64,000 nucleotides of DNA, from NCBI GenBank assembly GCA_945861665.1, contig CAMAVS010000003.1, positions 273,362 to 337,361 of the forward strand, written 5' to 3'. The stretch is from Chitinophaga pinensis. GTDB taxonomy: Bacteria > Bacteroidota > Bacteroidia > UBA4408. Below the pieces are notes generated by a model that worked only from the letters and a program-made list of their open reading frames with translations, did not search any database and was not told the origin of the DNA. Positions 4,833-52,514 of this stretch are shown piece by piece (the first letter of the stretch is position 1; each line of letters opens with the position of its first letter). Both the position numbers and the translations under genes were made by a program.

Positions 4833-4833
4833 G

Positions 4834-11928: not shown

Positions 11929-12085
11929 AATCTTATCAATGTTCTTTGTTTATAATGTATTTGCTGCAATATACGGCTAAATAATGCCTTGATTCGATGA
12001 GCATTTTTGTTTTTTAAGATACAAGTGTTACATTTGTGTGTAATTAACATTACATTAATTCTATAAACCAAATAAAAATAAACAA

Positions 12086-18307: not shown

Positions 18308-21300
18308 TTAAACTCGGATTCCAATTACTAAAATGTCGTCAACTTGTTCATTTCTGCCTTTCCAGCCTTCAACAAAATTATCTAAGTATTGTTCTTGTTC
18401 TTGCATTGTCTTGTTTTGAATACTGACTAAAATTTCTTTTAATTTTCTGGTCATTAATTTTTTTCCATCATGTCCGCTAAACTGGTCTGCGTAACCGTCT
18501 GTGCAAATGTAAAAAGTGTCGCCTTGCTGTAATTTTATTTCGTGCGTGTCAAAATGCTGATCATCATTTGTCAACCCACCTATAGCAACTTTAGTTCCTT
18601 TTATTTCTTCCACTTCGGTCTGCCCGTTACCGATAATCCACATAGGTCGGTTTGCACCAGCGTATTTTACAATACGATTTTTTGTGTCTACGGAGCAAAT
18701 AGCAATGTCCATTCCGTCTCTTGTTGATTCGCCTTTGCTTGATTGTTTTAAAGATGTTTTTACACCTTTATTTAGCAAGGATAATATTTCACTTGTATTA
18801 TTACTCTGTTGAACAGCATCTGTCAGTCGTTCTGAACCAACCATACTCATAAAAGCACCCGGCACTCCGTGTCCGGTACAGTCAACTACTGCGATAAAAA
18901 TAGGCCCCTCCCCAGCCCTCCCCGAAGGGGAGGGAGCATTATGAAAGAAATAAAAGTCTCCGCTTACAATATCTTTTGGTTTAAAGAGAATGAAACTTTG
19001 AGGTAGCGATAAATAAATTTCTTTTTTGTCGGGAAGAAATGCTTGCTGTATGCGAAGCGCATAGTTGATGCTGTCGGTTATTTCTTTGTGTTTTTCTTCT
19101 ACTATTTCCTTCTGCTTCGAAATTTCTACGTTAGCAAATTCAATTTTTGCTTTTTCTTCTCTTATAACAACTGTTGCTATTCGCACTTCTTCAGTAAGTT
19201 CTATTGCTCTTACTCTCAATCTTCTTCCGTTCCACCAAACAATTAAAATAACTGTTGTAATAATTAATAAACCATAAATTGAATAAGCCCACCACGTTTT
19301 CCACCATGGTGGACGAATTGTAAATGTGTAATTAAATTCGTCACTCCAATACCCTTCACTGTTCATTGCCTTTACTTTAAACGAATACTTTCCTTGTGGT
19401 AAGTTGCCATAAGGCGCTTCCGTGCGGTTAGTAATCGCGCTCCAGTTTTCATCAATGCCTTCTAATTTATATTGGTATTTTACTTTTTTACTTTGCTTTT
19501 GTGTGATGCTGATAAAATTAAAAGTTAAGTAATTGTTGTTGTATGCTAAACTTAAATTCTCCGGCAAGCTATACCATTTGGTAATTCCCTCAAACTCAAA
19601 ATCACTAACGCTTACTCCATTGCCAAGTGTTAGTGTGCTATCTTTTTTCTTCTCTAAATTTACCCAGCCAATATTTTCATTAAACAAGGCTATGCTTGTT
19701 AATTCAATATTTGGAGCAACAGTATCTGTGTTTTCTCCTTGAGGATGAAAAGCGGTTAGCCTGAAATTTGCTGCAACCCAAATAGTACCATTTTTATCTT
19801 CACAAATTGTTTTACCACCATTTACACCAATGCCTAAAAAACCATCTTCATACGTGTAGTTTTTAAAAAGTATTTCATCGGCTTGTATTTTGTTGAACTT
19901 GACTTTGTCATTTATTTCAACTAACTTCTCCTTACCTAGTCTTGCAAGACCAAAGCGGGTGCCGAACCAAAGGTTTCCGCTTTTGTCTTCCAGCATCGAC
20001 AAAACAGAATTATTACTGAGCCCTTCTTTTTCTGTAAAATGCGTAAAGGATTTCCCGTCATATTTACTGACTCCGCCATCCGTACCGAACCAAAGGTTTC
20101 CGCTTTTGTCTTCCAATATACTCTTTACAATATTATTGCTGAGCCCTTCTTTTTTTGTAAAATGCGTAAAGGATTTAACAAGTTTTCCATTAACTCTTTT
20201 AAGGCCTTGTTGAGTTCGTTGAGGAATAATCTCTCCTCTTTTCTCTGCGGCTTCTATTGCCTCAACTAGGTTCCCGTCATATTTTGATACGCCTCCGCCA
20301 TTCGTGCCGAACCAAAGGTTTCCGCTTTTGTCTTCCAATATACTCCAAACAGTATTATTGCTGAGCCCTTCTTTTTCTGTAAAATGCGTAAAGGATTTCC
20401 CATCATATTTACTCACTCCGCCATACGTCCCGAACCAAAGGTTTCCGCTTTTGTCTTCCAATATACTCCTTACAATATTATAAAATCGGTCTTCTTTTTC
20501 TGTAAAATAATGCGTAAAGGATTTAACAAGTTTTCCATTTTCTCTTTTAAGGCCTTGTTGAGTTCGTTGAGTAATAATCTCTCCTCTTTTCTCTGCGGCT
20601 TCTATTGCCTCAACTCGGTTACCGTCATATTTTGATACACCTCCGCCATCCGTGCCGAACCAAAGGTTTCCGCTTTTGTCTTCCAACATACTCCAAACCC
20701 TATTATTGATGAGCCCTTCTTTTTCTGTAAAATGCGTAAAGGATTTAACAAGTTTTCCATTTTCTCTTTTTAGGTCTTGTTGTGTTCGTTGAGGAATAGT
20801 CTCTCCTCTTTTCTCTGCGGCTTCTATTGCCTCAACTCGACTCCCGTCATATTTTGATACACCTCCGCCATACGTGCCGAACCAAAGGTTTCCGCTTTTG
20901 TCTTCCAACATCGACAAAACTTTATTATTGCTGAGCCCTTCTTTTTCTGTAAAATGCCTAAAGGATTTACCGTCATATTTGTTTACTCCTCCATCCGTGC
21001 CGAACCAAAGGTTTCCGCTTTTGTCTTCCAATATACTCCTTACAATATTATTGCTGAGCCCTTCTTTTTCTGTAAAATGCGTAAAGGATTTCCCGTCATA
21101 TTTTGATACACCTCCGTCATACATGCCGAACCAAAGGTTTCCGCTTTTATCTTCTAACATCGAAACAGCATTATTACTCAAACCTTCTTTTTCTGTAAAA
21201 TGCGTAAAGGATTTAACAAGTTTTCCATTTTCTCTTTTTAGGTCTTGTTGTGTTCTTTGAGGAATAACCTCTCCTCTTTTCTCTGCGGCTTCTATTGCCT

Positions 21301-22084
21301 CAACTCGGTTACCGTCATATTTTGATATACCTCCGCCATCCTTGCCGAACCAAAGGTTTCCGCTTTTGTCTTCCAGCATCGACAAAACAGAATTATTGCT
21401 GAGCCCTTCTTTTTTTGTAAAATGCGTAAAGGATTTACCGTCATATTTACTGACTCCGTCATCCGTGCCGAACCAAAGGTTTCCGCTTTTGTCTTCCAAC
21501 ATACTCCAAACAGCATTATTGCTGAGCCCTTCTTTTTCTGTAAAATGCGTAAAGGATTTCCCGTCATATTTACTTACTCCGCCAACCGTACCGAACCAAA
21601 GGTTTCCGCTTTTGTCTTGAAGCATGCAACGTGTTGCATCATGTTTTAAACCTTGTAATTTACTAAAAGAAGAAAAGCCTTCGGGGTTTTGGTCTTTTAC
21701 GTAAGCGTCTTTTGCAATTACAACTTCGGGTATTCCTGCTACAAAAGGGCTGTCGATGGCGGGAATTGTTTTGGGAAGAAGAAAAGTGTCTTGTCCGGGA
21801 GTAATTACTCTTGGTATTCCCGCTAAATGTATGTTTGTGTTTATTGCAATGTGAATATTTGTGTTTGTTGGAACTACTTTTGGATTTCCTGCTTTTACAA
21901 TTGTTGGTTTGCCACAAGGTATAACCTTTGGCTCCGTTACACTGTCTTTCGGTACAACATAACCTTTTGTTTCAATCACTTTTGGTGCAAAGGTGTTTGG
22001 TCGTTCCCGCTCTTCCTTTTGAGAGCAGGAAAAAAGGAACATCCCGCTTATTAAAAGAATGATTTGAATTTTTATTTTATTCAT
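18308..22084 (-). CDS. Multidomain signalling protein: lipoprotein signal peptide, Pro-rich linker, about 12 two-component-regulator-propeller (Reg_prop) blades, a Y_Y_Y domain, a transmembrane helix, a coiled coil and a C-terminal PP2C/SpoIIE-type Ser/Thr phosphatase.
   Basis: The blade motif DKSGNLWFGT.GGVSKYDGKSFTHFTEKEGLSNN recurs. The Y_Y_Y-like region is YQYKLEGIDENWS...GKYSFKVKA, followed by helix WWAYSIYGLLIITTVILIVWW. The PP2C motifs are GDFYFF, VVDCTGHGVPGAFMS, DGMDIAIC and FYICTDGYADQFG. Confidence 0.85.
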   Translation of the reverse strand: MNKIKIQIILLISGMFLFSCSQKEERERPNTFAPKVIETKGYVVPKDSVTEPKVIPCGKPTIVKAGNPKVVPTNTNIHIAINTNIHLAGIPRVITPGQDTFLLPKTIPAIDSPFVAGIPEVVIAKDAYVKDQNPEGFSSFSKLQGLKHDATRCMLQDKSGNLWFGTVGGVSKYDGKSFTHFTEKEGLSNNAVWSMLEDKSGNLWFGTDDGVSKYDGKSFTHFTKKEGLSNNSVLSMLEDKSGNLWFGKDGGGISKYDGNRVEAIEAAEKRGEVIPQRTQQDLKRENGKLVKSFTHFTEKEGLSNNAVSMLEDKSGNLWFGMYDGGVSKYDGKSFTHFTEKEGLSNNIVRSILEDKSGNLWFGTDGGVNKYDGKSFRHFTEKEGLSNNKVLSMLEDKSGNLWFGTYGGGVSKYDGSRVEAIEAAEKRGETIPQRTQQDLKRENGKLVKSFTHFTEKEGLINNRVWSMLEDKSGNLWFGTDGGGVSKYDGNRVEAIEAAEKRGEIITQRTQQGLKRENGKLVKSFTHYFTEKEDRFYNIVRSILEDKSGNLWFGTYGGVSKYDGKSFTHFTEKEGLSNNTVWSILEDKSGNLWFGTNGGGVSKYDGNLVEAIEAAEKRGEIIPQRTQQGLKRVNGKLVKSFTHFTKKEGLSNNIVKSILEDKSGNLWFGTDGGVSKYDGKSFTHFTEKEGLSNNSVLSMLEDKSGNLWFGTRFGLARLGKEKLVEINDKVKFNKIQADEILFKNYTYEDGFLGIGVNGGKTICEDKNGTIWVAANFRLTAFHPQGENTDTVAPNIELTSIALFNENIGWVNLEKKKDSTLTLGNGVSVSDFEFEGITKWYSLPENLSLAYNNNYLTFNFISITQKQSKKVKYQYKLEGIDENWSAITNRTEAPYGNLPQGKYSFKVKAMNSEGYWSDEFNYTFTIRPPWWKTWWAYSIYGLLIITTVILIVWWNGRRLRVRAIELTEEVRIATVVIREEKAKIEFANVEISKQKEIVEEKHKEITDSINYALRIQQAFLPDKKEIYLSLPQSFILFKPKDIVSGDFYFFHNAPSPSGRAGEGPIFIAVVDCTGHGVPGAFMSMVGSERLTDAVQQSNNTSEILSLLNKGVKTSLKQSSKGESTRDGMDIAICSVDTKNRIVKYAGANRPMWIIGNGQTEVEEIKGTKVAIGGLTNDDQHFDTHEIKLQQGDTFYICTDGYADQFSGHDGKKLMTRKLKEILVSIQNKTMQEQEQYLDNFVEGWKGRNEQVDDILVIGIRV
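18902..18938. repeat. GC-rich perfect palindrome inserted in-frame inside the PP2C domain coding sequence.
   Basis: CCCTCCCC-GAA-GGGGAGGG forms an 8-bp G/C stem. It is preceded by a second CCCCTCCCC copy and sits in otherwise ~35% GC DNA. It encodes the Pro/Gly-rich peptide SPSGRAGEGP. Confidence 0.7.
19890..21660 (-). repeat. Intragenic tandem DNA repeats (about 120-nt blade units with variable junctions) inside the propeller gene, including four copies of an in-frame 96-nt insert.
   Basis: The unit CCGAACCAAAGGTTTCCGCTTTTGTCTTCCAA... recurs at least 11 times at near-100% nucleotide identity. The insert encoding NRVEAIEAAEKRGE.I.QRTQQ.LKR.NGKLV occurs four times at the same blade position. 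Confidence 0.85.
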
Positions 22085-30109: not shown

Positions 30110-30883
30110 ATGAAAAATCATATCCCTAATTTTATTACATCTCTTAATTTAGTTTGCGGTTGTATGGCAATTGTTGCAGTCTTTCACAATCGATTGGATG
30201 AAAGTGCTATACTTATAGCTATAGCTGCTGTATTGGATTTTTTTGATGGTTTTGCCGCGCGTATGTTGAGTGTGCATTCTGAAATCGGTAAGCAGCTCGA
30301 TTCACTTGCCGATATGGTATCCTTTGGTGTTGCCCCGGGAATGATTTTATATACTATGTTAGAGCCGGGCTACCATTTTGTAGTGGATGGACATACACTG
30401 AATTTTGAACGATATGAATACATAAAATACTTAGCGCTGTTGATACCTGTTTTTTCTGCAGTACGTTTGGCTAAATTTAACATCGATACGCGACAGTCCG
30501 ATTCATTTATTGGTGTGCCAACTCCCGCTAACTGTATGTTAATTTCTTCCATTCCTGTTATTTTAATTCATCAAAATGGTTATACCATAAATCCAGATGG
30601 ATCCTTTTCCTTGTACAATTTTATTGAAATAATAGGTAATCAATGGTTTTTAGTAACGCTAATCCTTATTATGTCTTATTTAATGGTGGCTGAATTACCC
30701 TTGTTTGCGTTGAAGTTTAAAAGCTTCGATTGGCAAAACAACAAGTTGCGTTATTTGTTTTTGGCTATGTCAGCTACATTGATTGTTACAACTCAATTTA
30801 TTTCCATTCCCATTATTATCGTTTTATACATCCTACTATCTCTTGTTATAAGCATTTTTAAAATAGATAGTTCTTCAAAATAA
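30110..30883 (+). CDS. pssA: CDP-diacylglycerol--serine O-phosphatidyltransferase (CDP-alcohol phosphatidyltransferase family).
   Basis: Motif D.FDG.AAR......GKQLDSLADMVSFGVAP; 257 aa, polytopic. Confidence 0.8.
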   Translation: MKNHIPNFITSLNLVCGCMAIVAVFHNRLDESAILIAIAAVLDFFDGFAARMLSVHSEIGKQLDSLADMVSFGVAPGMILYTMLEPGYHFVVDGHTLNFERYEYIKYLALLIPVFSAVRLAKFNIDTRQSDSFIGVPTPANCMLISSIPVILIHQNGYTINPDGSFSLYNFIEIIGNQWFLVTLILIMSYLMVAELPLFALKFKSFDWQNNKLRYLFLAMSATLIVTTQFISIPIIIVLYILLSLVISIFKIDSSSK

Positions 30884-30945
30884 AATCTTCCCGTTCTTTC
30901 ATCTATAAATTATTTGCTGTAACTTTGAGAGTATATTATAGAATT

Positions 30946-33135
30946 ATGAAAAAGATACTTCTCCTTATTTTATACGTATTCTCTTTCAGTTTTTCTGTTA
31001 ATGCACAATTTTATTTTAAAAAGATAGATACCCTCAACGTTAAAATTGGCAATACCAATTTAGAGAATGCTTGGGCAGGGGGGGCGAATTTTGTTCAAGT
31101 ATCGGACATTGATTTGGACCAGGATAGTATTATGGACCTTTTTGTGTTTGATAGAACCGGAAATAAAATATCAACCTATATTAACAAGGGAACAGCAGAT
31201 TCTATTGATTATAAATACGACTGGACGTATATTAAAAAATTTCCTAAGCTGCACGACTGGGTATTATTGCGCGATTATAATTGTGATGGCAAAATGGATA
31301 TCTATACCTACAACAATGGTGGTGTAGATGTGTATAGGAATATTTCTGATGCGAATGGCCTGAGCTTTGTGCTTGCAGAAAGTTTACTCTTTTCAAACTA
31401 TCATCCCAATATGTTAAATCTATACATTACTCTTGTTGATATTCCAGCTATTTACGATATTGATAAGGATGGTGATATTGACATACTTACCTTCAATATT
31501 TTGGGAGGCTTTTTGGAGTACCACAAAAATATGTCGATGGAAATTTATGGCGTGTGTGATAGTTTAAAAAAAATATATCAGCTTGATAATGGATGCTGGG
31601 GTAATTTTAGTGAAAGCGGTATCAATAGTACTATTAATTTGGGTATTAGTTGTAAGGGGCCTGGTGGAAATATTGATCCGCAACAAGTAAACCATTCAGG
31701 TTCGGCATTGTGTAGTTTTGATGCCGATGGGGATGGCGACTGCGATTTATTGTTACATGACATTTCAAGCAATGGTGGAATTATGTTAACCAATGGTGGC
31801 GACATCAATACAGCGAGTTTGGTTGCACAAGACGGCAATTTCCCTTCCAATTCTGTTAAATTAGATATTGTTGGATTTCCTTCCAGCTATTATGTGGATG
31901 TGAATAACGATGGAAAGCGCGATTTGATAGCAAGTCCTAATGCCCAAAATTTATCCGAAAACTTTAACAGTATTTGGTGGTATAAAAATATGGGCAACGA
32001 CTCAATGCCTGTTTTTGTGCATCAAAAAAATAACTTTTTGCAGGATGAAATGATAGAAGTAGGGCAGGGAGCTTTTCCTGTTTTCTTTGATTATAATAGT
32101 GATGGTTTGTTGGATATTGTAATTGGTAACGCGGGTTACTATAACGCGGGGGCAATGAAATCGACATTAACCTTGATGAAGAATATTGGAACTATTGCAA
32201 AACCCGCATTTGAAATTGTAAGCCTTGACTATGCTAACTTATCGTTAAATAACTTTAAAGATATTTATCCCACTTTTGGCGATTTGGATGGTGATACCGA
32301 TAAAGATATGGTGGTGGGTGACGACCAAGGGCATTTGCATTATTATGAGAATATGGCAGCTATAGGTACTGCTGCCAATTTTGTTTTATCAATGCCACTT
32401 TTGGGTGGAATTGATATTGGCAGTTATGCAATGCCACAATTGATTGACTTGGATAGAGATGGTTTGTTGGACCTTGCCATTGGTGAGCAAAGCGGTAATG
32501 TGAACTATTACCGCAATACAGGCACTGTAAACAATGCTGCATTTACTTTGATGAAAGCAAATTTGGGTGGCGTAAAAACCAATTTACCGAATTACATTGT
32601 AGGCTATAGCGCACCAAAATTTATTGACGTGAATGGTTCCTTCAAATTAATTTGCGGTTCCGAGAACGGAAATATTTATTACTACAATAACATTGATGGT
32701 AACTTAAATGGCAATTTTACTTTGGTTGATTCTGCCTATTACGGTATATGGGAAGGTGTACGCTCTGCATTGGATGTTACCGACTTAAACCAAGATGGAT
32801 ATTACGATATGGTGGTGGGGAATTACTCAGGAGGACTTGGTTTTTACTTAGGAGATATTGGTGGTTCTATAAATGAGAATGTGGTGAATGATGTATTTAA
32901 TTTATACCCAAATCCTGCATACGATAATGTTACCATTGAAGTAGACAAACATTTTGATTTAAGCCACAGCTGTTTATTCATTGTAAATGTGGTAGGTGAA
33001 AAGGTGCTTGAAAAAAGTTTTAGCGAACGTTATACCGCAACTATTAATATTAGCAACCTTGCTAAAGGTGTTTACTTTGTGAATATTAGCAATGATACTT
33101 ATTCTTGTACTAAGAAAATGGTGATTGCAAGGTAG
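30946..33135 (+). CDS. FG-GAP/VCBS-repeat secreted protein with a T9SS type-A C-terminal sorting domain.
   Basis: Repeated D.D.DG..D motifs (FG-GAP-like). C-terminal LYPNPAYDNVTIEV...IVNVVGEKVLEKSF...GVYFVNISNDTYSCTKKMVI. The start is taken at MKKILLLIL (signal peptide). Confidence 0.7.
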   Translation: MKKILLLILYVFSFSFSVNAQFYFKKIDTLNVKIGNTNLENAWAGGANFVQVSDIDLDQDSIMDLFVFDRTGNKISTYINKGTADSIDYKYDWTYIKKFPKLHDWVLLRDYNCDGKMDIYTYNNGGVDVYRNISDANGLSFVLAESLLFSNYHPNMLNLYITLVDIPAIYDIDKDGDIDILTFNILGGFLEYHKNMSMEIYGVCDSLKKIYQLDNGCWGNFSESGINSTINLGISCKGPGGNIDPQQVNHSGSALCSFDADGDGDCDLLLHDISSNGGIMLTNGGDINTASLVAQDGNFPSNSVKLDIVGFPSSYYVDVNNDGKRDLIASPNAQNLSENFNSIWWYKNMGNDSMPVFVHQKNNFLQDEMIEVGQGAFPVFFDYNSDGLLDIVIGNAGYYNAGAMKSTLTLMKNIGTIAKPAFEIVSLDYANLSLNNFKDIYPTFGDLDGDTDKDMVVGDDQGHLHYYENMAAIGTAANFVLSMPLLGGIDIGSYAMPQLIDLDRDGLLDLAIGEQSGNVNYYRNTGTVNNAAFTLMKANLGGVKTNLPNYIVGYSAPKFIDVNGSFKLICGSENGNIYYYNNIDGNLNGNFTLVDSAYYGIWEGVRSALDVTDLNQDGYYDMVVGNYSGGLGFYLGDIGGSINENVVNDVFNLYPNPAYDNVTIEVDKHFDLSHSCLFIVNVVGEKVLEKSFSERYTATINISNLAKGVYFVNISNDTYSCTKKMVIAR

Positions 33136-42928: not shown

Positions 42929-44236
42929 TTACTTTAAGATATGAATTTTTCTCGTTATCGTTTCTTTTCCAGTTCTAAGTTCAATAAAATAAATACCGTT
43001 TGAAACATTGCTTAAGTCAACAGTATACTTGCCCATTTTGTTATTATCGAAAGTGTTGGTATAAAAAGTATTTCCTAAAATATCGTACACTTTAACTTCC
43101 ATTGTAGATTTATTAAAGAGCTCTATGTTTACATTTACCAAACCATTCGAAGGATTTGGATAAATGGAAATGTTTTTTTCAATATTTACCTGCTCTTCAG
43201 TAGAGGCAATTAATAAGAATCGATAAGGACTTTTTGTTAATGCGGTGTGCATTCTGGTTTTTTGGTTGTTGGTAAACATTACTACAACATTATCGTCACA
43301 ATAATCCATAAAGTTCATAAACATATCACCATTTGGGGCATTTCCGGGGCAATTGGATGTACTAGGGAAATTAGGACTGCCAAAATTTTCTTCAAATTGT
43401 GTTGGTGTATCATTGCAATAATCAGTAGCACACGTATCGTCACCCCAAATATGTCGTAAACCTAAGTAATGTCCTATTTCGTGTGTAGTGGTTCTTCCTA
43501 AATCCTCACCAAATATAACGTTTCCTGTTGTTCCAAAAGCATTGTATTTAACAACAATTCCGTCTGTAATAGATGTTCCGAAAGGTCCAAATAAGCCTGT
43601 TAAGGTAGAGTTTGGAGGAAAAGTTGCGTAACCTAATAAGGGCGAAGCTAAATTACATGTCCAAATATTTAAAAAGAGTTTAGGATTCCAAATACTATTT
43701 GGCTTTATGGTTTGAGTTACATATGTTTCTGAATAGGGTGCAGCTGACCATCCCATTGTCGTTCGATTAATTCGCTCAATTCCCGGTGTTGCCATTGGAC
43801 TCCCATATTGATCTACAGTTGTTAAAAAGAAGTTTATTTGGCAATCGGCAACTCTGGTGGTCCAAACTCCTGGAGTATTATTCCAATCTGAATTTGTTTT
43901 GGTAAAATCCTTATTCAAGGATGCGATTTGTGATTGAATTTGAGCATCACTAATATTGGAATTGGTGCCAATTGCCTCTCCATTATTAATTACGTGAACA
44001 ATTACAGGAATATTGTATATAATGGCATTAGTTTTACCTGCAAAATAGGATTCATCAACTAAATTTATTGCCATCCAATTTTCGAATTCTTCTAAAGTAC
44101 CCATTTCAGGATTTTCTGCACGCATTTTTCTATCCACATCCATTGTTGCACACCTTCCAGCGTTATGATGTTGAGCAATTACAATTGTTGAAGTAAGTAA
44201 ACTGGTAATCGCTAATGTTATTAGTTTTATTTTCAT
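42929..44236 (-). CDS. M43-family (pappalysin/ulilysin-like) zinc metalloprotease with a T9SS type-A C-terminal sorting domain.
   Basis: Metzincin HEIGHYLGLRHIWGDD; signal peptide; C-terminal IYPNPSNGLVNVNIE...GIYFIELRTGKETITRKIHI. Confidence 0.8.
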   Translation of the reverse strand: MKIKLITLAITSLLTSTIVIAQHHNAGRCATMDVDRKMRAENPEMGTLEEFENWMAINLVDESYFAGKTNAIIYNIPVIVHVINNGEAIGTNSNISDAQIQSQIASLNKDFTKTNSDWNNTPGVWTTRVADCQINFFLTTVDQYGSPMATPGIERINRTTMGWSAAPYSETYVTQTIKPNSIWNPKLFLNIWTCNLASPLLGYATFPPNSTLTGLFGPFGTSITDGIVVKYNAFGTTGNVIFGEDLGRTTTHEIGHYLGLRHIWGDDTCATDYCNDTPTQFEENFGSPNFPSTSNCPGNAPNGDMFMNFMDYCDDNVVVMFTNNQKTRMHTALTKSPYRFLLIASTEEQVNIEKNISIYPNPSNGLVNVNIELFNKSTMEVKVYDILGNTFYTNTFDNNKMGKYTVDLSNVSNGIYFIELRTGKETITRKIHILK

Positions 44237-44434
44237 AAGTATATGTTCAGTTAAATTTTATGCTGCCACTTATTTTACCAAAGTAATAAATATTTTGTTA
44301 AAATCGGAAATAAACTTTACAGGAAGTTATAAGTTACTTGATTAAATAGTTTCCAGCAGAAACCTTTATTTTATTCGTGTATACAAAAGTGTATGAAGGA
44401 ATACTTCGTTTTTTCTATTAAATTTACAAACTAT

Positions 44435-45139: not shown

Positions 45140-45690
45140 TAGCGCTTGGAGAAATAGATAAGGCATTATTTTTGGCATTAAATGGAATGCACAATTCATT
45201 TTTTGATCCTATAATGCAATTTGCAAGCAATAAGTATGTTTGGATACCATTATATGCTCTATTAATTTGGTTGATTATTAAAACATTTAAAAAAAAATCA
45301 ATCATTATTCTGTTGTCAATTGTGCTTATTATAGCATTTTCAGATCAATTTTCAGTCATTATAAAAAATATCGTATTAAGGCTGCGCCCTTGCCATAATA
45401 AAATGCTTTTAGAACAAATTCATATCAATGGTAATTGTGGAGGATATTTTGGTTTTGTATCATCTCACGCTGCTAATACTTTTGCTTTAGCACTATTTTT
45501 AAGTTTTTTATTGAGGCGCAAGTACAATTATTTTCCACATCTTATTTTTGCCTGGGCAATTTTTGTTTCTTATAGTAGAATATATAATGGTGTACATTAT
45601 CCATTAGACATAATTGGTGGCGCATTTTTAGGATTACTAATTTCCTTTAGCATATATACCATTGTAAAATCTTATATTTATACAAAATGA
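45136..45690 (+). CDS. PAP2-family membrane phosphatase.
   Basis: PAP2 motifs KNIVLRLRP....GFVSSHAANTFALA...SRIYNGVHYPLD. Overlaps the regulator stop by 4 nt. Confidence 0.8.
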   Translation: MIALGEIDKALFLALNGMHNSFFDPIMQFASNKYVWIPLYALLIWLIIKTFKKKSIIILLSIVLIIAFSDQFSVIIKNIVLRLRPCHNKMLLEQIHINGNCGGYFGFVSSHAANTFALALFLSFLLRRKYNYFPHLIFAWAIFVSYSRIYNGVHYPLDIIGGAFLGLLISFSIYTIVKSYIYTK

Positions 45691-45911
45691 ACGTTGTTTA
45701 TGTATTCAAAGGTGGAGGCCTTGGAAGTGTTTTTCGCTTTGCTATTTCGGAATGGGTGAAAAGTAATTTTAAAGGTGCTTTTCCTTTAGCTACGTATGTA
45801 TTATTCTCTCACTTGTTTATTCATAATTTACTTTATTGCAAAAAAACACTAACTAATTATTTATATGAAAAAGTATATTTTTTTAATTCTACTTCAAACA
45901 CTTTTTGTTGA
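45687..45911 (+). pseudogene. crcB: 5' remnant of the fluoride channel gene crcB (only the first ~35 codons are CrcB-like).
   Basis: MNVVYVFKGGGLGSVFRFAISEWV...AFPLATYV matches the CrcB N-terminus. Past ~45800 the frame reads through an AT-rich promoter-like sequence into the next gene's start, and no other frame continues CrcB. Confidence 0.5.
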
Positions 45912-47517
45912 AACTGCCTTTTCGCAGAAAGTAATACCTGCATCTGTTTCAAGTAATGCTGTTTATCCTAAATTAGTTATTGGAATTGTAATTGATCAAA
46001 TGAGGTACGACTACATTTATAAATATTGGTCAAAATATTGCAACGATGGCTTTAAGCGTTTGGTGAATGAAGGTTATTCTTGTAAAAATACCAATTTTAA
46101 TTACGTTCCCACCTACACTGGACCGGGTCACGCATCAATATATACTGGAACCACTCCGGCTATTCACGGTATTGTAGGTAATGATTGGTATGATAGGGAA
46201 GTTGCATCAAGGGTGTATTGTGTAAAAGACAAATCTCAAAAAACTATTGGTACCCTAAACGAAAAGGATAGCTCAGGTTCTATGTCGCCACATAGAATGC
46301 TTACCACCACCATTACAGATGAATTAAAGTTGTCGAACAATAAAAAGTCAAAAGTGATTGGTATATCATTAAAAGACAGAGGTGCTATTTTGCCTGCCGG
46401 TCATATGGCAAATGCTGCTTATTGGATGAATGCTGAAGGGATGTGGATAAGCAGTTCGTATTATATGAAAAATTTGCCTGTATGGGTTACAAATTTCAAT
46501 GCAAAATCGCTCACTCAAAAATACCTTTCACAGGTATGGAATACCCTTTTACCTATTAATCAGTATACTGAAAGTTTATCCGACACCAATGTTTTTGAAA
46601 GTCCATATGAAGGAGAATTATTACCCGTTTTTCCCCATAATTTACTTGAAATTGTAAAAAAAGAAGGGAATGAGCTTATAAAAGCTACACCTTTTGGTAA
46701 CTCAATACTAAAGGATTTTGCTATTGAAACAATTAAGTCGGAACAGTTGGGTAAACGAACTTTTTGTGATTTTTTAGCCTTAAGCTTTTCCTCAACGGAT
46801 TATTTAGGCCATCAGTTTGGACCAACTTCGGTTGAAGTAGAAGATTGCTATTTAAGGTTGGATAGGGACATTGCTGAATTGTTAAAGTTTTTGGATACTT
46901 ACTTGGGTAAAAATAATGTACTTATTTTTTTAACTGCCGACCATGCGGCACCTGAAAATCCACTGTATTTAAAAAGTTTGGGTATAGGAGCAGGAACAAT
47001 TGATGGTAGCACATTTAAATCGGTTAATGAAACGTTAAAAAACATGTATGGTGATTCTATTATTGAAAAGTATATCAATCAGCAGTTTTATTTGAATAAC
47101 AAAGTCATTGGCCGTAGAAAATTGGATAAGGTTGACGTTGAAAATTACATTGCATCTCAAGTTGTTTTAGTAAAGGGTGTTGCGGCTAGTGTGACCCGAA
47201 CAACATTGTGTAATTCAGAATTTACTGAATCGCCTCGAATGCTTATTCAAAAAGGCTTTAATCAGAAAAGGTCAGGGGATGTGATGTTAAATTACGAGCC
47301 CGGTTGGATGGATTATGTAACCTTGGGTACTACACATGGCTCGGCTTACAGCTATGATACTCACGTGCCATTAATATGGTATGGCTACTTAATTAAGCAC
47401 GGAAGTACTGTTGAACCTATAAATATTACTGATATAGCCCCTACTTTGGCATTACTATTAAATATACAATTTCCGAATGGCTGTACAGGAAAACCTATCC
47501 AAATGTTATTCAAGTAA
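45865..47517 (+). CDS. Alkaline-phosphatase-superfamily enzyme (type I phosphodiesterase/nucleotide pyrophosphatase, PafA-like); secreted.
   Basis: Signal peptide; NPP-type motifs TYTGPGHASIYTGTTPAIHGIVGNDWYD, FLTADHAAP, TTHGSAYSYDTHVP. Confidence 0.7.
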   Translation: MKKYIFLILLQTLFVETAFSQKVIPASVSSNAVYPKLVIGIVIDQMRYDYIYKYWSKYCNDGFKRLVNEGYSCKNTNFNYVPTYTGPGHASIYTGTTPAIHGIVGNDWYDREVASRVYCVKDKSQKTIGTLNEKDSSGSMSPHRMLTTTITDELKLSNNKKSKVIGISLKDRGAILPAGHMANAAYWMNAEGMWISSSYYMKNLPVWVTNFNAKSLTQKYLSQVWNTLLPINQYTESLSDTNVFESPYEGELLPVFPHNLLEIVKKEGNELIKATPFGNSILKDFAIETIKSEQLGKRTFCDFLALSFSSTDYLGHQFGPTSVEVEDCYLRLDRDIAELLKFLDTYLGKNNVLIFLTADHAAPENPLYLKSLGIGAGTIDGSTFKSVNETLKNMYGDSIIEKYINQQFYLNNKVIGRRKLDKVDVENYIASQVVLVKGVAASVTRTTLCNSEFTESPRMLIQKGFNQKRSGDVMLNYEPGWMDYVTLGTTHGSAYSYDTHVPLIWYGYLIKHGSTVEPINITDIAPTLALLLNIQFPNGCTGKPIQMLFK

Positions 47518-47554
47518 AATAATTGTTAAATTCGCACTCATAAAAATAGAAAAA

Positions 47555-47734
47555 ATGTCTGAAGAGAAAAAAAATGAAATACTTGAATTCGAAATTCCAA
47601 TAGGTGGGTCATTAGGAATGTTGGCATTAGGAGCTGTTGGTTATTTAGCTTGGAAAAAAAAGGTAGAAGAGGCGAAAGTGAAGGGAAATAGTTTAACTGA
47701 AAATACAATAAAAGATGGGAAAGCGACTAGCTAA
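47555..47734 (+). CDS. Possible small single-pass membrane protein.
   Basis: MSEEKKNEILEFEIPIGGSLGMLALGAVGYLAWKKK...; sits between the two AlkP-family genes. Weakly supported. Confidence 0.25.
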   Translation: MSEEKKNEILEFEIPIGGSLGMLALGAVGYLAWKKKVEEAKVKGNSLTENTIKDGKATS

Positions 47735-50282
47735 AAAAGTACTTGTAATTGGTTGGGATGCGGCCGATTGGAACGTAATCAACCCACTTATAGAAAAGGG
47801 TTTTATGCCCACTCTTGAAAAGTTTATTAATCAAGGGGTTATGGGGAAAATATCCACTCTTGACCCTCCGCTTTCTCCAATGTTGTGGACATCCATTGGA
47901 ACAGGAAAAACAGCAGAAAAGCACGGAATTTTGGGCTTTACTGAACCAAATTCAACAACTCAATCTATTAGGCCTGTATCTGTTACTTCACGAAAAGTAA
48001 AAGCATTGTGGAATATTTTAACACACGAAAAGTATAAGACACACCTTGTTGGTTGGTGGCCCAGTCATCCTGCCGAACCTATTAACGGAATTGTTGTCTC
48101 TGATATGTTTACTAAAATGGACAAATCAGAAGAAGGTTGTCCGTTTAAATATCAAGAAGATTGTATTCATCCAAAAGAATTAGAAGACTTATTTGTAAAC
48201 TTGCGTGTTCATCCTTCCGAAATAGCTTCAAATCACATAACTCCTTTTATTCCCAATGCTGAAAAAGTAGACCAAGAAAAGCATCAGTGGATTCAAACAA
48301 TTTCAATTTTATTGAGTCAATGTGCAACAAATCACAATGCAGCTACTTGGATTCTTGAGAATAAAGAATGGGATTTTTTAGGTGTTTATTTTGATACGAT
48401 AGACCATTTTAGTCACGCATTTATGAAATATCATCCACCCAAAATGGACGGTATTGAACAAGAGGAATTTGATTTTGTTAATGATGTAGTAAATAGTGCA
48501 TATCGTTATCACGATATGATGTTGGAACGATATCTGAAACTTGCCGGTGATGACGCTACTATAATCATTGTTTCCGATCATGGCTTTCATTCGGGATCAC
48601 TTCGACCAAAGACGCTCCCTAAAGATCCGGCATCGCCAGCTTTTGAACACAGTCAATATGGGATTATTGCAATGAAAGGCCCCGGAATCTTAAAGGATGA
48701 ACTAATATATGGTGCTTCTGTTTTGGATATAACGCCAACCATTTTAACCTTATTTGGACTGCCAGTTGGAAAGGATATGGATGGAAAGGTATTGGTAAAT
48801 GCTTTTGATGAAAATGTAATACCAGAATTTATTGATAGTTGGGAAGATTTAGAGGGTGATTTTGGAATGCACCCCCCTGAAATGAGAGACAATCCTTGGT
48901 CGTCACAAGATGCTATGAATCAATTGGTAGAATTAGGCTATGTGGAAGCACCATCAGAAGATAATAAAGTAACGTTAAAAAGAGTTGTTGATGAGTCGAA
49001 TTATTATTTGGCTTTAACATACTCCTTTAAAAAGCAGTATAGTGATGCATTGCCATTATTAGAAAAATTAGTTGTCGATAATCCTGATACAGTACGTTTT
49101 CTTATGCGATTAGCCTCTTGTTACCAGTCTTTGGGGAACAATATTGGCTGTCGGAAAGTAATCGAAAAACTAAGAACACTTGATTCAAAAACAATTCCAC
49201 ATCTCGATTTTTTAGAAGGATCATTGTTGTTGAGCGAGAATAAGGTTCGTAATGCATTGGAGAAGTTTAAAAGTGCAGAAAAAGCAGTTCCGCATTTCCC
49301 CAATTTACATTTACAAATTGCCAATACATATTTTAAAATAAAAAAACTTGATTTGGCTTTAGGCGCCTATAACAAAGCATTCGAAATTGATCCGGATAAC
49401 CCAACTGTTCATCACGGGATAGGTGTTTGCTATTTAAGGTTGGATAGGTACGAAGAGGCGATTGACGAACTTCTTACAGCGGTTGGTTTTATACATTTAT
49501 TCCCGGCAGCACATTATCACTTAGGTGAGGCCTTGTTGAAAAATGGAAATTACGAAATGGCTGAACAAGCTTTTTTAGTTTCCTTGGCACAATCTCCCGG
49601 AAATAGAAGGGCACATCAGTGGATTGCTAAATTATATAAGGAGCATCTAGTTACACCTGAGAAAGCCATTTATCACGAAGAATTCATAAAAAATAACATT
49701 AAAGGAACTATCACTATTGTTTCGGGATTACCAAGAAGCGGAACTTCTATGATGATGCAAATGTTGAATGCGGGTGGCTTGGGTGTTCTTACGGACAATG
49801 TTCGCCAAAATGATGATAGTAATCCCAAAGGGTATTTGGAATTGGAGAAGGTGAAGAAGTTGCATTTGGATAATTCTTGGCTGAAAGAGGCCGATGGTAA
49901 GTTGATAAAGGTTGTTGCTCCATTGGTTATGAATTTATCAAACGACTATAATTATAAAATTATATTTATGTTACGTGATATGGATGAGATGATTCGCTCA
50001 CAGCAAAAAATGCTTGGAAAATCTGAGGATGTTATAAAATCTTCTTATCCGGTTAGTTTAATTGAAGCATTTAAAAAACAGTTAGAAAAAGCAGATATTT
50101 GGTTAAAAAGTATGCCTAACGTTTCCTATATGTATGTAAATTATACTGATGTAATTAACTCGCCTGAAGAGCAAATAGAAAATTTAAATTCCTTTTTTGA
50201 TAACGAGTTGGATACCGATAAAATGTTAGGCCAAGTAGACCCATCTTTGTACAGAAATAAAAGTAAGGAATTTCAGAATTAG
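47715..50282 (+). CDS. Tripartite fusion: an N-terminal alkaline-phosphatase-superfamily (NPP-like) domain, central TPR repeats and a C-terminal PAPS-type sulfotransferase domain.
   Basis: N-terminus VLVIGWDAADW...LDPPLSPMLWTSIGTGKTAEKHGILG...IIVSDHGFHSG (AlkP/NPP core). TPR-like repeats span residues ~430-640. The C-terminus carries a sulfotransferase 5'-PSB loop VSGLPRSGTSMMMQML and a 3'-PB-like MLRDMDEMIRS. Confidence 0.75.
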   Translation: MGKRLAKKVLVIGWDAADWNVINPLIEKGFMPTLEKFINQGVMGKISTLDPPLSPMLWTSIGTGKTAEKHGILGFTEPNSTTQSIRPVSVTSRKVKALWNILTHEKYKTHLVGWWPSHPAEPINGIVVSDMFTKMDKSEEGCPFKYQEDCIHPKELEDLFVNLRVHPSEIASNHITPFIPNAEKVDQEKHQWIQTISILLSQCATNHNAATWILENKEWDFLGVYFDTIDHFSHAFMKYHPPKMDGIEQEEFDFVNDVVNSAYRYHDMMLERYLKLAGDDATIIIVSDHGFHSGSLRPKTLPKDPASPAFEHSQYGIIAMKGPGILKDELIYGASVLDITPTILTLFGLPVGKDMDGKVLVNAFDENVIPEFIDSWEDLEGDFGMHPPEMRDNPWSSQDAMNQLVELGYVEAPSEDNKVTLKRVVDESNYYLALTYSFKKQYSDALPLLEKLVVDNPDTVRFLMRLASCYQSLGNNIGCRKVIEKLRTLDSKTIPHLDFLEGSLLLSENKVRNALEKFKSAEKAVPHFPNLHLQIANTYFKIKKLDLALGAYNKAFEIDPDNPTVHHGIGVCYLRLDRYEEAIDELLTAVGFIHLFPAAHYHLGEALLKNGNYEMAEQAFLVSLAQSPGNRRAHQWIAKLYKEHLVTPEKAIYHEEFIKNNIKGTITIVSGLPRSGTSMMMQMLNAGGLGVLTDNVRQNDDSNPKGYLELEKVKKLHLDNSWLKEADGKLIKVVAPLVMNLSNDYNYKIIFMLRDMDEMIRSQQKMLGKSEDVIKSSYPVSLIEAFKKQLEKADIWLKSMPNVSYMYVNYTDVINSPEEQIENLNSFFDNELDTDKMLGQVDPSLYRNKSKEFQN

Positions 50283-50875
50283 TGAATAATTTAACACCCG
50301 TTATCAGTAAAGTGTCGATGGGCCAACGGCAGAATCAGTTGCAACAAAAACCTCTTGTTGTTTGGCTTACTGGCTTTTCGGGTGCAGGTAAAACAACCAT
50401 TGCACAAGCACTTGAACAACTATTGTATCAGCATAATTACAAATCGGTTGTTCTGGATGGAGATAATATTAGAGGTGGTTTGAATAACAATCTTTCATTC
50501 TCAGAGCAAGATAGAACGGAAAATATAAGACGAATTGCAGAGGTGTCAAAACTGTTTTGCGACAGTGGACTAATTGTAATTTCAAGTTTTATAACACCGC
50601 TTAACAGTATGCGAAAAATGGCACGTAGCATTATTGGTGATGAAAAATTTGTTGAAGTATTTGTAAACTGCCCTATTGAAGTGTGTGAGCAACGTGATGT
50701 GAAAGGTTTGTATAAAAAAGCACGTACTGGGGAGATTAAAAATTTTACAGGAATGGATGCCGGTTTTGAAATTCCAAGCCAAGCCGAATTGGTAATTGAC
50801 TCGAATGGTACTTCGAGCGAACAGTCGGTTAAAAAACTTTACGATTACATTGTTTCAAAAATTAAATTGGTATAA
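50282..50875 (+). CDS. cysC: Adenylyl-sulfate (APS) kinase.
   Basis: P-loop LTGFSGAGKTTIA and SFI.P motifs; 197 aa. Its GTG start overlaps the stop of the sulfotransferase fusion by 1 nt. Confidence 0.9.
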   Translation: MNNLTPVISKVSMGQRQNQLQQKPLVVWLTGFSGAGKTTIAQALEQLLYQHNYKSVVLDGDNIRGGLNNNLSFSEQDRTENIRRIAEVSKLFCDSGLIVISSFITPLNSMRKMARSIIGDEKFVEVFVNCPIEVCEQRDVKGLYKKARTGEIKNFTGMDAGFEIPSQAELVIDSNGTSSEQSVKKLYDYIVSKIKLV

Positions 50876-50879
50876 CACC

Positions 50880-52514
50880 ATGATTATGGACATAGATTTT
50901 AATAAAAACGAAGACAAAATGAATTTACTGATTTCTGTGATGGAGCAGAAATTGGCAAAAATATATTTAGGTGGAGGCAAAGCTAAAATTGATAAACAGC
51001 ATGAGCAAGGTAAACTTACAGCCCGTGAAAGAATTAAATTTTTGTTGGATAAAGATTCGAAATCAATCGAACTTGGAGTATTTGTGGGCGATGATATGTA
51101 CAAGGAACACGGTGGTTGTCCTGCCGGTGGAGTAGTGATAGTAATGGGTTACGTAAGTGGAAGGCAATGTATTGTTGTGGCAAACGATGCTACAGTAAAA
51201 GCGGGTGCTTGGTTTCCCATCACCGGAAAAAAGAATTTGCGTGCGCAAGAAATTGCAATGGAAAATCGTCTTCCAATTATTTACTTGGTTGATAGTGCAG
51301 GTGTGTATTTGCCGATGCAAGATGAAATTTTTCCTGACAAGGAACATTTTGGTAGGATATTTAGAAACAATGCGGTAATGAGCAGTATGGGTATTTTGCA
51401 AATATCTGCAGTAATGGGAAGTTGTGTTGCTGGTGGAGCTTATTTGCCTATTATGAGTGACGAGGCAATGATTGTTGACAAAACAGGAAGTATTTTCCTT
51501 GCGGGTTCTTATTTGGTAAAAGCGGCAATTGGTGAATCCATCGACAATGAAACATTGGGTGGAGCAACTACGCATTGTGAAATATCGGGTGTTACCGACT
51601 ATAAGTGCAAAGACGATCAGGATTGTTTAACACGCATCCGAAACATTATGAGTAAAATTGGCGATTTTGATAAAGCCGGTTTCAACAGAATTGAATCAAA
51701 AGAACCAAAGAAAAATCCGAAAGAAATTATTGGCATTATCCCCGATGTGCGCGACAAGCAATACGATATGATGGAAGTAATAGCTCGTTTGGTGGACGAA
51801 TCGGATTTTGAAGAATACAAAGAGGGCTATGGGCAAAGTATTTTATGCGGACTTGCACGCATTCATGGTTGGAGTGTTGGCATAGTTGCCAACCAACGAA
51901 AAGTAGTAAAGAGCAAAAAAGGTGAAATGCAATTTGGTGGTGTTATTTACAGTGACAGTGCTGATAAAGCAGCACGTTTTATTATGAATTGCAATCAAAA
52001 GAAAATACCCTTGGTTTTTTTACAAGATGCAACCGGTTTTATGGTTGGCTCTCGTTCCGAGCACGGAGGTATAATAAAAGATGGAGCCAAATTGGTAAAC
52101 GCAATGGCAAATTCGGTAGTTCCAAAGTTTACTGTAATAATTGGCAACTCATACGGTGCTGCCAATTATGCAATGTGCGGAAAAGCATACGACCCGCGTT
52201 TAATTGTTGGATGGCCAACAGCACAAGTTGCCGTAATGGGTGGAGCACAAGCAGCGAAAGTATTGGTGCAAATTGAAGTGGCGTCTTTAAAGGCAAAAGG
52301 CGAAGTAATTACTTCTGAAAAGGAAGCCGAACTGTATAATAAAATTAAAGACCGTTACGATACGCAAACCAGTCCCTATTATGCAGCATCGCGTTTGTGG
52401 CTTGATGCCATCATTCATCCGCTAGATACACGCAAATGGATATCAATGGGTATTGAGGCTGCCAATCATTCGCCAATTACAAAGGCATATAATGTGGGTG
52501 TGATTCAAACATAG
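50880..52514 (+). CDS. Acyl-CoA carboxylase carboxyltransferase subunit (propionyl/methylcrotonyl-CoA carboxylase beta chain family).
   Basis: Duplicated crotonase-like carboxyltransferase domains (GGAYLP..., VIIGNSYGAANYAMCG). The start is taken at MIMDIDF just after the cysC stop. Confidence 0.85.
   Translation: MIMDIDFNKNEDKMNLLISVMEQKLAKIYLGGGKAKIDKQHEQGKLTARERIKFLLDKDSKSIELGVFVGDDMYKEHGGCPAGGVVIVMGYVSGRQCIVVANDATVKAGAWFPITGKKNLRAQEIAMENRLPIIYLVDSAGVYLPMQDEIFPDKEHFGRIFRNNAVMSSMGILQISAVMGSCVAGGAYLPIMSDEAMIVDKTGSIFLAGSYLVKAAIGESIDNETLGGATTHCEISGVTDYKCKDDQDCLTRIRNIMSKIGDFDKAGFNRIESKEPKKNPKEIIGIIPDVRDKQYDMMEVIARLVDESDFEEYKEGYGQSILCGLARIHGWSVGIVANQRKVVKSKKGEMQFGGVIYSDSADKAARFIMNCNQKKIPLVFLQDATGFMVGSRSEHGGIIKDGAKLVNAMANSVVPKFTVIIGNSYGAANYAMCGKAYDPRLIVGWPTAQVAVMGGAQAAKVLVQIEVASLKAKGEVITSEKEAELYNKIKDRYDTQTSPYYAASRLWLDAIIHPLDTRKWISMGIEAANHSPITKAYNVGVIQT

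Follow-up and report, generated by a model that had tools for sequence, protein, structure and literature searches.

A conserved fusion of an NPP-like domain, TPRs and a sulfotransferase, and its PEP-CTERM-like micro-protein partner, in a Chitinophaga genome

The DNA analysed here, called the window throughout, is a 64-kb stretch of a Chitinophaga pinensis assembly (phylum Bacteroidota; contig CAMAVS010000003.1, positions 273,362 to 337,361 of the forward strand). It contains four consecutive genes that encode (i) the phosphatase PafA, (ii) a micro-protein, (iii) an 855-residue enzyme of three domains and (iv) CysC, the kinase of adenosine 5'-phosphosulfate (APS). An earlier note had read these four open reading frames (ORFs) as a candidate self-contained sulfation module. 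All four are present on the plus strand (Table 1), but the conserved cassette around the enzyme has a different membership: its other parts are the micro-protein and a family of exported proteins.

The micro-protein is most plausibly translated from the ATG at 47555, downstream of the PafA stop codon, which gives 59 residues, and its gene shares its last 20 nt with the beginning of the enzyme gene. The junction between the enzyme gene and cysC reads ...AAT TAG TG..., with one base common to the TAG stop and the GTG start. A promoter and terminator scan gave no signal exceeding shuffled expectation.

The enzyme joins an NPP-like (nucleotide pyrophosphatase/phosphodiesterase-like) two-metal phosphoesterase domain with a candidate serine nucleophile, about seven tetratricopeptide repeats (TPRs) and a predicted sulfotransferase domain dependent on 3'-phosphoadenosine 5'-phosphosulfate (PAPS). 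Both catalytic centres are intact and strictly conserved. The earlier note had called these three parts correctly, and Phosphodiest, Sulfotransfer_3 and Sulfotransfer_1, which it expected, score above their cut-offs. The Phosphodiest profile (PF01663) matches residues 9-294 with 94.9 bits against a cut-off of 23. The candidate metal ligands are D15, D230, H234, D288, H289 and H312, and the candidate nucleophile is S54; D15 and D18 lie in the motif IGWDAADW, D288 and H289 in SDHGFHS. Conservation was assessed over 79 homologs from several phyla, with 38-60% identity: S54, D230, H234, D288, H289 and H312 are invariant in all 79, and D15 in every homolog in which the N-terminus is present, which bears out the alkaline-phosphatase-superfamily metal ligands and nucleophile proposed earlier. 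The best solved sequence relative of the domain profile is phosphonoacetate hydrolase (PhnA), on whose nucleophile, Thr64, S54 aligns. The domain is assigned to the NPP or type I phosphodiesterase clade because of this alignment and the invariance of S54 and the ligands, and profile score and fold point the same way.

Within that clade the N-domain is nevertheless distant from every characterised member. Its identity to solved members of the NPP, PafA and PhoK group is only 15-19%, the PF01663 match spans only model positions 1-224 of 342, and the nucleophile, which in NPPs is followed by Asn, stands here in the sequence S-P-M-L-W. No signal peptide is found on the 855-residue protein, whose first beta-strand begins by residue 8. 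The enzyme is therefore predicted to be cytoplasmic, unlike the known NPP and PafA enzymes, and the secreted or periplasmic location typical of NPP, PafA and PhoK does not apply to it. A further difference is that in this family the domain is always joined to TPRs. It is also the most conserved region of the enzyme.

The TPR region (about residues 415-645) is matched by many Pfam TPR families, and the full-length AF2 model (mean predicted local distance difference test, pLDDT, 80.4) has 16 helices over residues 415-661. Its best natural structural matches are OGT, SPINDLY and the TPR domains of the anaphase-promoting complex (APC/C); a TPR-scaffolded capsule polymerase (8qoy) is also among the fold matches. 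A fold search with the full-length model was dominated by TPR matches and gave no information on the arrangement of the domains.

The C-terminal domain (residues 664-855) scores 40.8 bits against a cut-off of 27 for Sulfotransfer_3 (PF13469) and 23.4 bits against 22 for Sulfotransfer_1 (PF00685, residues 667-846). The 5'-phosphosulfate-binding (PSB) loop GLPRSGTS at residues 671-678 (R674, G676, T677, S678) and the 3'-phosphate-binding (3'-PB) pair R754...S762 are invariant in all 79 homologs, and the significant sequence matches of the domain profile in the PDB are sulfotransferases without exception. Profile scores and both motifs thus agree on a PAPS-dependent sulfotransferase, and the earlier claim of intact PAPS motifs holds. 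The base that activates the acceptor is His in cytosolic SULTs and Glu in TPST and heparan-type enzymes. The C-domain has no conserved His, the position two after K732 being V or I. It has a conserved block D694-R697-D700-N703-G706-Y707-E709, of which E709, kept in 78 of the 79, is the sole conserved acidic candidate for a general base. The closest PDB matches are to the SULT1 family (E ~1e-5), and those to TPST1/2 (E 0.05-0.5) cover the PSB loop only; for this reason no claim of tyrosine specificity is made, and a specific likeness to TPST was dropped. The PSB loop is degenerate in one 873-residue homolog with the micro-protein fused to its N-terminus (P0314), where it reads GLPQTGTE and not GLPRSGTS; from this sequence, some lineages may retain the NPP-TPR part with an inactive sulfotransferase domain.

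The three parts had been described as not normally fused. On the contrary, the members of a very large family are normally fused: the N-domain profile retrieves 4,070 representative clusters (50% identity) at E <= 1e-30, mostly of fusion length. Fragments aside, the best 120 matches of a search in a 5.8-billion-protein collection are all full-length (841-892 residues, 51-60% identity) and, where named, bear the label 'alkaline phosphatase family protein'. A relative of the enzyme is encoded in at least 584 GTDB species genomes, and the carriers include cultured Flavobacteriaceae, Planctomycetota, Nitrospirota, Desulfobacterales and Gammaproteobacteria. The family is thus large, phylogenetically broad and uncharacterised. 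A literature search for PEP-CTERM with sulfotransferase, or for TPR with sulfotransferase and alkaline phosphatase, returned no description of the architecture or the cassette; the architecture and the partners of this sulfotransferase system are novel and conserved, and the parts themselves come from known superfamilies.

About one fifth of the best N-domain matches are only ~660-700 residues long and end after the TPRs. At loci L088 and L089 such an NPP-TPR gene runs through an ATGA overlap into a separate gene for a 188-residue sulfotransferase, 35% identical to the C-domain of the window enzyme (E 5e-37). These pairs argue that the NPP-TPR unit and the sulfotransferase are kept together, fused or split, and they rule out at these two loci an N-domain that works alone in a sulfotransferase-free variant. 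Where the genes are split, the TPRs are encoded together with the NPP-like domain, apart from the sulfotransferase. Two other two-domain homologs (P0328, P0342) are followed by a contig end or a pilin-like ORF. The split pair is present twice in one 6.4-Mb contig, with a gene of the FGE-sulfatase family (formylglycine-generating-enzyme-like) directly before each copy (L088, 4089-4996; L089, 4010-4996). Genes for a large sulfatase and a PpiC rotamase are found in addition upstream of one of the two copies. The micro-protein motif was not found at either split pair.

All ORFs within 6 kb of the enzyme were called and clustered for 80 reference loci and the window, and only two neighbour families recur in these 81 loci, the micro-protein and the exported proteins. 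The micro-protein is the most constant partner: the family hidden Markov model (HMM) finds its motif directly upstream on the same strand in 73 of the 81 loci. The gap to the enzyme gene is mostly between -20 and +20 nt and overlaps are frequent, so the micro-protein seems to be translationally coupled to the enzyme almost everywhere. The window copy consists of a PEP-CTERM-like core, IPIGGSLGMLALGAVGYLAWKKK, and a K/E-rich tail; the family consensus is [IV]-P-x-[ED]-G-S-L-G-L-L-A-[LY]-G-x-x-G-[LIV]-x-A-W-R-x-x-[RK], again with a K/E-rich tail. At E <= 1e-3 the family counts 2,044 members of 46-105 residues, all unannotated and without a Pfam domain. Four newly sampled members comprise two directly before an enzyme gene, one in the order enzyme-cargo-micro-protein and one alone. 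In at least eight homologs the motif is fused in frame to the N-terminus of the enzyme (P0099, P0109, P0262, P0314, P0356, P0361, P0375, P0377), and six of these are distinct 50%-identity representatives.

The earlier note had mentioned this gene as a tiny single-pass membrane ORF and passed over it. Its position upstream of the enzyme stands, and the frequency of the pairing and the natural fusions make it a real conserved partner. The membrane role is not supported. None of 57 micro-protein cores reaches the classical transmembrane hydrophobicity threshold and 48 contain charged residues, although the window copy is the most hydrophobic (1.58); hydrophobicity and the fused variants together disfavour a classical single-pass membrane protein, which the window copy might still be.

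Genuine PEP-CTERM tails have hydrophobicity in the same range and the same charge asymmetry, and the PEP-CTERM/exosortase signal VPEPxxLxLLxxGxxGLxxxRRR parallels the micro-protein core IP.EGSLGLLALG..GL.AWR..R. In Planctomycetota and Gammaproteobacteria the micro-protein HMM matches the PEP-CTERM tails of the exported proteins encoded upstream of the enzyme, as in the tail IPEPGSLALLAAGALGLASARRRK at locus L090, which is comparable to the same core. The micro-protein is not itself a PEP-CTERM sorting domain, however: PF07589 gives 14.0-14.8 bits against a cut-off of 20.7, no NCBIfam model matches, and the motif stands alone in proteins of 45-105 residues or on the N-terminus of a cytoplasmic enzyme, not as the C-terminal tail of a passenger with a signal peptide. 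It further differs in that its core is often charged and that it is found in Bacteroidota, whose exported proteins carry tails of the type IX secretion system (T9SS). By sequence the micro-protein resembles PEP-CTERM tails and is probably derived from them.

The usual third gene of the cassette, missed in the earlier note, encodes an exported protein of ~280 residues, here called the cargo. It is adjacent to the enzyme in 67 of the 81 loci, in one to four copies and often as two to four tandem paralogs. Relative to the enzyme gene, the cargo is encoded downstream in the same orientation at 38 loci, upstream in the same orientation at 12 and upstream but divergent at 11. The Bacteroidota members of the family carry a T9SS type-A tail at their end (PF18962 and TIGR04183 above cut-off). 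Those of Planctomycetota and Gammaproteobacteria are encoded directly upstream of the enzyme and have a bona fide PEP-CTERM tail, which in a Pirellulales protein scores 32.6 bits for PF07589 and 29.9 against 16 for TIGR02595. No Pfam or NCBIfam domain model covers the family, whose conserved features are a DxDxDGxxD loop, HYGW.R, D[YW]AY[DE] and, at the predicted mature N-terminus, [IV]-[VI]-Y-[ST]-[DG]. The signal peptides share the motif K/R-L-x-x-Y-S-x-A-A-G-A across phyla (e.g. L004 12638-13480, L090 345-983); its Tyr is present in 96% of 54 members. Such a motif is unusual for signal peptides and might be a recognition determinant. An HMM search over all six-frame ORFs of the window finds no member of the cargo family: only T9SS tails match, on proteins that lack the cargo N-terminal domain (Table 1).

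In the window the slot usually held by the cargo gene is taken by cysC, which is a minority state. The product is an APS kinase, with 246.7 bits for TIGR00455 (cut-off 138.7), 218.4 bits for PF01583 and the P-loop GFSGAGKTT. A cysC gene is found at 4 of the 80 reference loci against ~0.36 expected for one copy per 4-Mb genome (~11-fold, P ~5e-4). Five arrangements are seen, among them directly before the micro-protein (L015, L022), after the cargo (L047), within the Dokdonia locus L067, and overlapping downstream (the window and L081, whose enzyme is 68% identical). The Dokdonia locus, in which a cysQ-like gene, cysC and cysD are joined by cysN beside the cassette, is the sole full set among the 80. 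Because the association is recurrent and independently arranged, it supports the use of PAPS by the enzyme, and a functional link to PAPS supply is plausible on these genomic grounds. The cysC link drawn in the earlier note is thus strengthened by enrichment and by the overlap kept in L081, but juxtaposition as in the window is conserved in the immediate lineage only. When every ORF of 150 residues or more in the 64 kb was scanned against Pfam, none proved to be cysD, cysN, sat, cysH or cysQ. This agrees with the note that sulfate adenylyltransferase is absent from the window and contradicts the term 'self-contained': ATP sulfurylase is missing and cysC is the sole gene of the PAPS route.

The window PafA is predicted to be a phosphate-scavenging enzyme unrelated to the cassette. 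It matches the equivalog NF042991 over residues 1-549 of 550 (753.6 bits against 650), and its N-terminus, MKKYIFLILLQTLFVETAFSQ, reads as a signal peptide. It had been taken for a paralog of the enzyme N-domain, but BLASTP detects no similarity (best E 0.04). It had also been counted as a module member, but PafA lies beside the enzyme at none of the 80 reference loci and only in the two closest relatives, in the orders PafA-micro-protein-enzyme-cysC (L081) and PAP2-CrcB-PafA-[Sulfotransfer_2, Asp/Arg hydroxylase]-micro-protein-enzyme-T9SS cargo (L082, enzyme 60% identical). PafA is described as an exported, phosphate-insensitive phosphatase of Bacteroidota (PMC8812569). PafA is treated as an unrelated neighbour and ruled out of a sulfation module because of this known role, its absence from the 80 loci and a PAP2-CrcB-PafA synteny that is local to the lineage.

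Two further observations concern the same region. Between the PAP2 gene and PafA lies a 74-residue ORF (45687-45911, plus strand) with a CrcB-like start (MNVVYVFKGGGLGSVFRF...) that then diverges and has no Pfam match at 1e-5; L082 has a short CrcB-annotated ORF in the same place (tblastn, 42% over 50 residues), and by this comparison the ORF may be a truncated crcB remnant conserved in the lineage. In L082 the Sulfotransfer_2 and Asp/Arg beta-hydroxylase-family genes (2318-3510, minus strand) are inserted between PafA and the micro-protein, a pair reminiscent of predicted systems that hydroxylate and then sulfate secreted proteins.

Table 1. Positions in the window of the genes, domains and motifs discussed, and of its proteins with T9SS tails
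Feature	Positions	Strand	Basis or remark
PafA, 550 aa	45865-47517	+	NF042991 equivalog, full length
Micro-protein, 59 aa	47555-47734	+	Family HMM; ATG at 47555, mechanical ORF from 47477
Three-domain enzyme, 855 aa	47715-50282	+	Pfam scans, AF2 model
N-terminal NPP/PafA-like alkaline-phosphatase-superfamily domain, aa 1-410	47715-48944	+	Candidate nucleophile S54 at nt 47874-47876
TPR array, aa 415-661, ~7-8 helical repeats	48957-49697	+	TPR Pfam families, AF2 helices
Sulfotransferase domain, aa 664-855	49704-50279	+	PF13469, PF00685
5'-PSB loop GLPRSGTSMM	49725-49754	+	Within sulfotransferase domain
3'-PB motif R754...S762	49974-50000	+	Within sulfotransferase domain
CysC (APS kinase), 197 aa	50282-50875	+	TIGR00455; GTG start, alternative in-frame ATG at 50318
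T9SS type-A protein, function unassigned	12086-14080	+	T9SS tail (HMM match at 12059-14077), without cargo N-terminal domain
T9SS type-A protein, FG-GAP repeats	30925-33135	+	T9SS tail (HMM match at 30871-33132), without cargo N-terminal domain
T9SS type-A protein, M43 metallopeptidase	42929-44236	-	T9SS tail (HMM match at 42932-44257), without cargo N-terminal domain

The rest of the window has the signs of a Bacteroidota genome with T9SS and gliding: SprB, PorP/SprF and several Por_Secre_tail proteins. A partial giant SprB-repeat adhesin (42-5754, plus strand; 1,596 residues with a CHU_C T9SS signal) is followed by PorP/SprF and then a DUF6268 protein, a typical gliding-motility adhesin cassette. 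A TauE/SafE-family permease of the anion (sulfite/sulfonate) exporter type lies at 6675-7478 (plus strand), 40 kb from the sulfotransferase. The 1,258-residue protein at 18308-22084 (minus strand) combines Reg_prop beta-propellers and Y_Y_Y with a C-terminal SpoIIE/PP2C phosphatase domain, which occupies the place of the usual partner histidine kinase. Directly downstream of the cassette, a carboxyltransferase ORF (50796-52514, plus strand) with a TTG start as listed overlaps the end of cysC by 80 nt; its true start is probably the ATG near 50876-50880 (MIMDIDFNK...), because its Pfam domain begins only at residue 67.

The reading favoured here is that the enzyme uses PAPS to O-sulfate exported proteins before their export, with the TPRs as the docking site and the micro-protein as a recognition element; it is put forward tentatively, its chances of being right falling slightly short of its chances of being wrong. 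The enzyme would transfer the sulfuryl group to a hydroxyl of the adjacent cargo proteins in the cytoplasm, before translocation. In the window the overlapping cysC would supply PAPS on the spot, starting from APS that other parts of the genome provide. The TPRs would dock the protein substrate or a PEP-CTERM-like element, and the micro-protein would be the recognition element, retained in trans or in cis, whether as a subunit or as an activator, once the Bacteroidota cargo had switched to T9SS tails. The NPP-like domain would act on the same docked substrate or on the nucleotide by-product; the docked substrate is the likelier target than free 3'-phosphoadenosine 5'-phosphate (PAP), because the TPRs stay with the N-domain in split forms and this domain is the best conserved. 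Judged by gene arrangement, tandem cargo paralogs beside a single enzyme resemble enzyme-plus-substrate clusters, and both RaxST/RaxX and the maturation of sulfatases before export are precedents for cytoplasmic modification of proteins that are exported later.

Several points weigh against sulfation of the cargo. Adjacency alone does not identify the acceptor, 14 of the 81 loci (the window included) have no cargo gene within 6 kb, cysC is missing from 76 of the 80 reference loci, and one micro-protein homolog stands alone. The cargo proteins have ordinary-looking signal peptides, so a cytoplasmic enzyme would need to reach them while they are still untranslocated. Nothing singles out one Tyr, Ser or Thr in the cargo as the site, and a Pirellulales protein has Phe within the motif VY[ST]. 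By sequence, the nearest relatives of the C-domain are SULT1 enzymes that act on small molecules, and the capsule polymerase match indicates that TPRs can be mere scaffolds.

The last two points also suit a non-protein acceptor, the main rival, which is possible though unlikely. On the cytoplasmic side of the membrane, the enzyme would then sulfate a lipid, a lipid-linked glycan or a small metabolite and also process it through the NPP-like domain; the micro-protein would be a weakly hydrophobic membrane tether and the TPRs a scaffold between the two catalytic domains, while the exported proteins would only share the regulation of the enzyme, for instance because they bind or use the product. 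A tether would fit the PEP-CTERM-like hydrophobicity of the micro-protein, highest in the window copy, and its charge asymmetry (-0.8 before and +2.7 after the core), and glycosyltransferase or sugar-transferase genes lie near L083 and L084. The characterised Bacteroides sulfotransferase cluster, moreover, acts on cholesterol (PMC9417993). But genes for glycan or lipid biosynthesis are not conserved neighbours, only the micro-protein and the cargo being recurrent, and the tandem cargo paralogs look like substrates of the one enzyme. A tether is also hard to square with the charged cores, with their failure to reach the transmembrane threshold and with the cores of fused forms (e.g. GDQGLRAW, GHEGLDLL). 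An improbable alternative is the unit of the earlier note, in which PafA, the tiny membrane ORF, the enzyme and cysC together sulfate and the NPP-like domain recycles PAP. PAP is a product inhibitor of sulfotransferases, NPP-family enzymes hydrolyse nucleotide phosphoesters, and the genes are co-directional and closely spaced, with cysC overlapping the enzyme gene and the whole order retained in L081. Against this stand the lack of ATP sulfurylase, the pairing of the TPRs with the NPP-like domain in split forms, which suggests work on a docked substrate and not on free PAP, and the high conservation of that domain. PafA itself is an exported equivalog of a known phosphate-scavenging enzyme (PMC8812569), without significant similarity to the N-domain and without a place at the 80 loci.

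The micro-protein could in principle be the substrate, a precursor sulfated or otherwise modified like a ribosomally synthesised and post-translationally modified peptide (RiPP). Its tight translational coupling, its conserved core with nearly invariant Ser and Trp and the ability of TPR domains to bind peptides speak for this, yet it is very improbable: recurrent fusion to the enzyme N-terminus is more readily explained by a subunit or recognition element than by a product that is released, no conserved protease or exporter is nearby, the core has no conserved Tyr, and other phyla carry this motif as the tail of a 200-300-residue exported protein. Hardly credible is the view that the juxtaposition of cysC is incidental and the sulfotransferase domain catalytically irrelevant here. 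The scarcity of cysC at the reference loci and the degenerate loop of P0314 would fit it, but the PAPS-binding residues are invariant in the 79 homologs, cysC is enriched in several arrangements, and its overlap with the enzyme gene is retained at 68% protein identity. Returning to protein sulfation, its wider form is that the cassette is a multi-phylum system for the modification of dedicated exported surface proteins by sulfation, possibly with a coupled phosphoester step, in which the TPRs once read a PEP-CTERM tail that persists as the free or fused micro-protein. Taken as a whole this is distinctly unlikely; if true, it would be a natural counterpart of the leader-peptide-in-trans activation of RiPP enzymes.

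To our knowledge, few cases of bacterial sulfation of proteins or surface molecules have been described: RaxST/RaxX, Nod factors, mycobacterial sulfolipids and Bacteroides cholesterol sulfate. RaxST and RaxX, with RaxPQ, form the tyrosine sulfation system of Xanthomonas (PMC4646787, PMC4892823). Like the window enzyme, RaxST is a cytoplasmic bacterial PAPS-dependent sulfotransferase with a PSB loop of the GxPRSGT type and a tie to PAPS-synthesis genes. It modifies a protein destined for export, which for the window enzyme is only proposed; it is a single domain without TPRs or an NPP-like domain and has no known micro-protein partner, and its substrate is a small peptide that leaves by type I export, whereas the cargo of the window family has Sec/T9SS or PEP-CTERM signals. 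The cholesterol sulfotransferase BT_0416 of Bacteroides thetaiotaomicron is likewise a Bacteroidota sulfotransferase next to PAPS genes, and its cluster is a known, nearly self-contained one: BT_0411-0415 supply the whole PAPS route (PMC9417993), against cysC only in the window. BT_0416 is a stand-alone SULT that acts on a sterol, without NPP-like domain, TPRs, micro-protein or cargo genes.

OGT and SPINDLY, the best natural TPR matches of the model, share with the enzyme a superhelical TPR array directly before a transferase domain. They transfer glycosyl groups with a different catalytic fold, whereas the window enzyme is predicted to transfer sulfuryl groups, and they lack the N-terminal phosphoesterase-like domain; docking of substrates by the TPRs of the window enzyme is a proposal. 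Operons of hydroxylase, sulfotransferase and PAPS synthetase beside secreted collagen-like and tail-collar proteins have been predicted (Iyer et al. 2010, PMC2938197), and there too a sulfotransferase with co-encoded PAPS synthesis is predicted to modify co-encoded secreted proteins. L082, with its hydroxylase-family and Sulfotransfer_2 genes beside the cassette, is similar in this respect. The enzyme families and substrates of those operons are different, and no NPP-like domain, TPR fusion or micro-protein is described for them; the term 'alkaline phosphatase' is absent from that text.

The window is an atypical instance of the cassette, in that it has no cargo gene. For its annotation, the tiny membrane ORF is worth keeping and the adjoining PafA is unrelated. 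Current annotation labels the enzyme, the micro-protein and the exported family either 'alkaline phosphatase family protein' or 'hypothetical'. Since the cassette is present in Flavobacteriaceae that are in culture (Psychroserpens, Lacinutrix, Bizionia, Dokdonia, Marinirhabdus, Gangjinia), the family can be tested directly. If the cargo proteins are the substrates, T9SS and exosortase cargo would be subject to a widespread modification that has gone unrecognised, and the micro-protein would be a clear example of an enzyme subunit recruited from what remained of a sorting signal.

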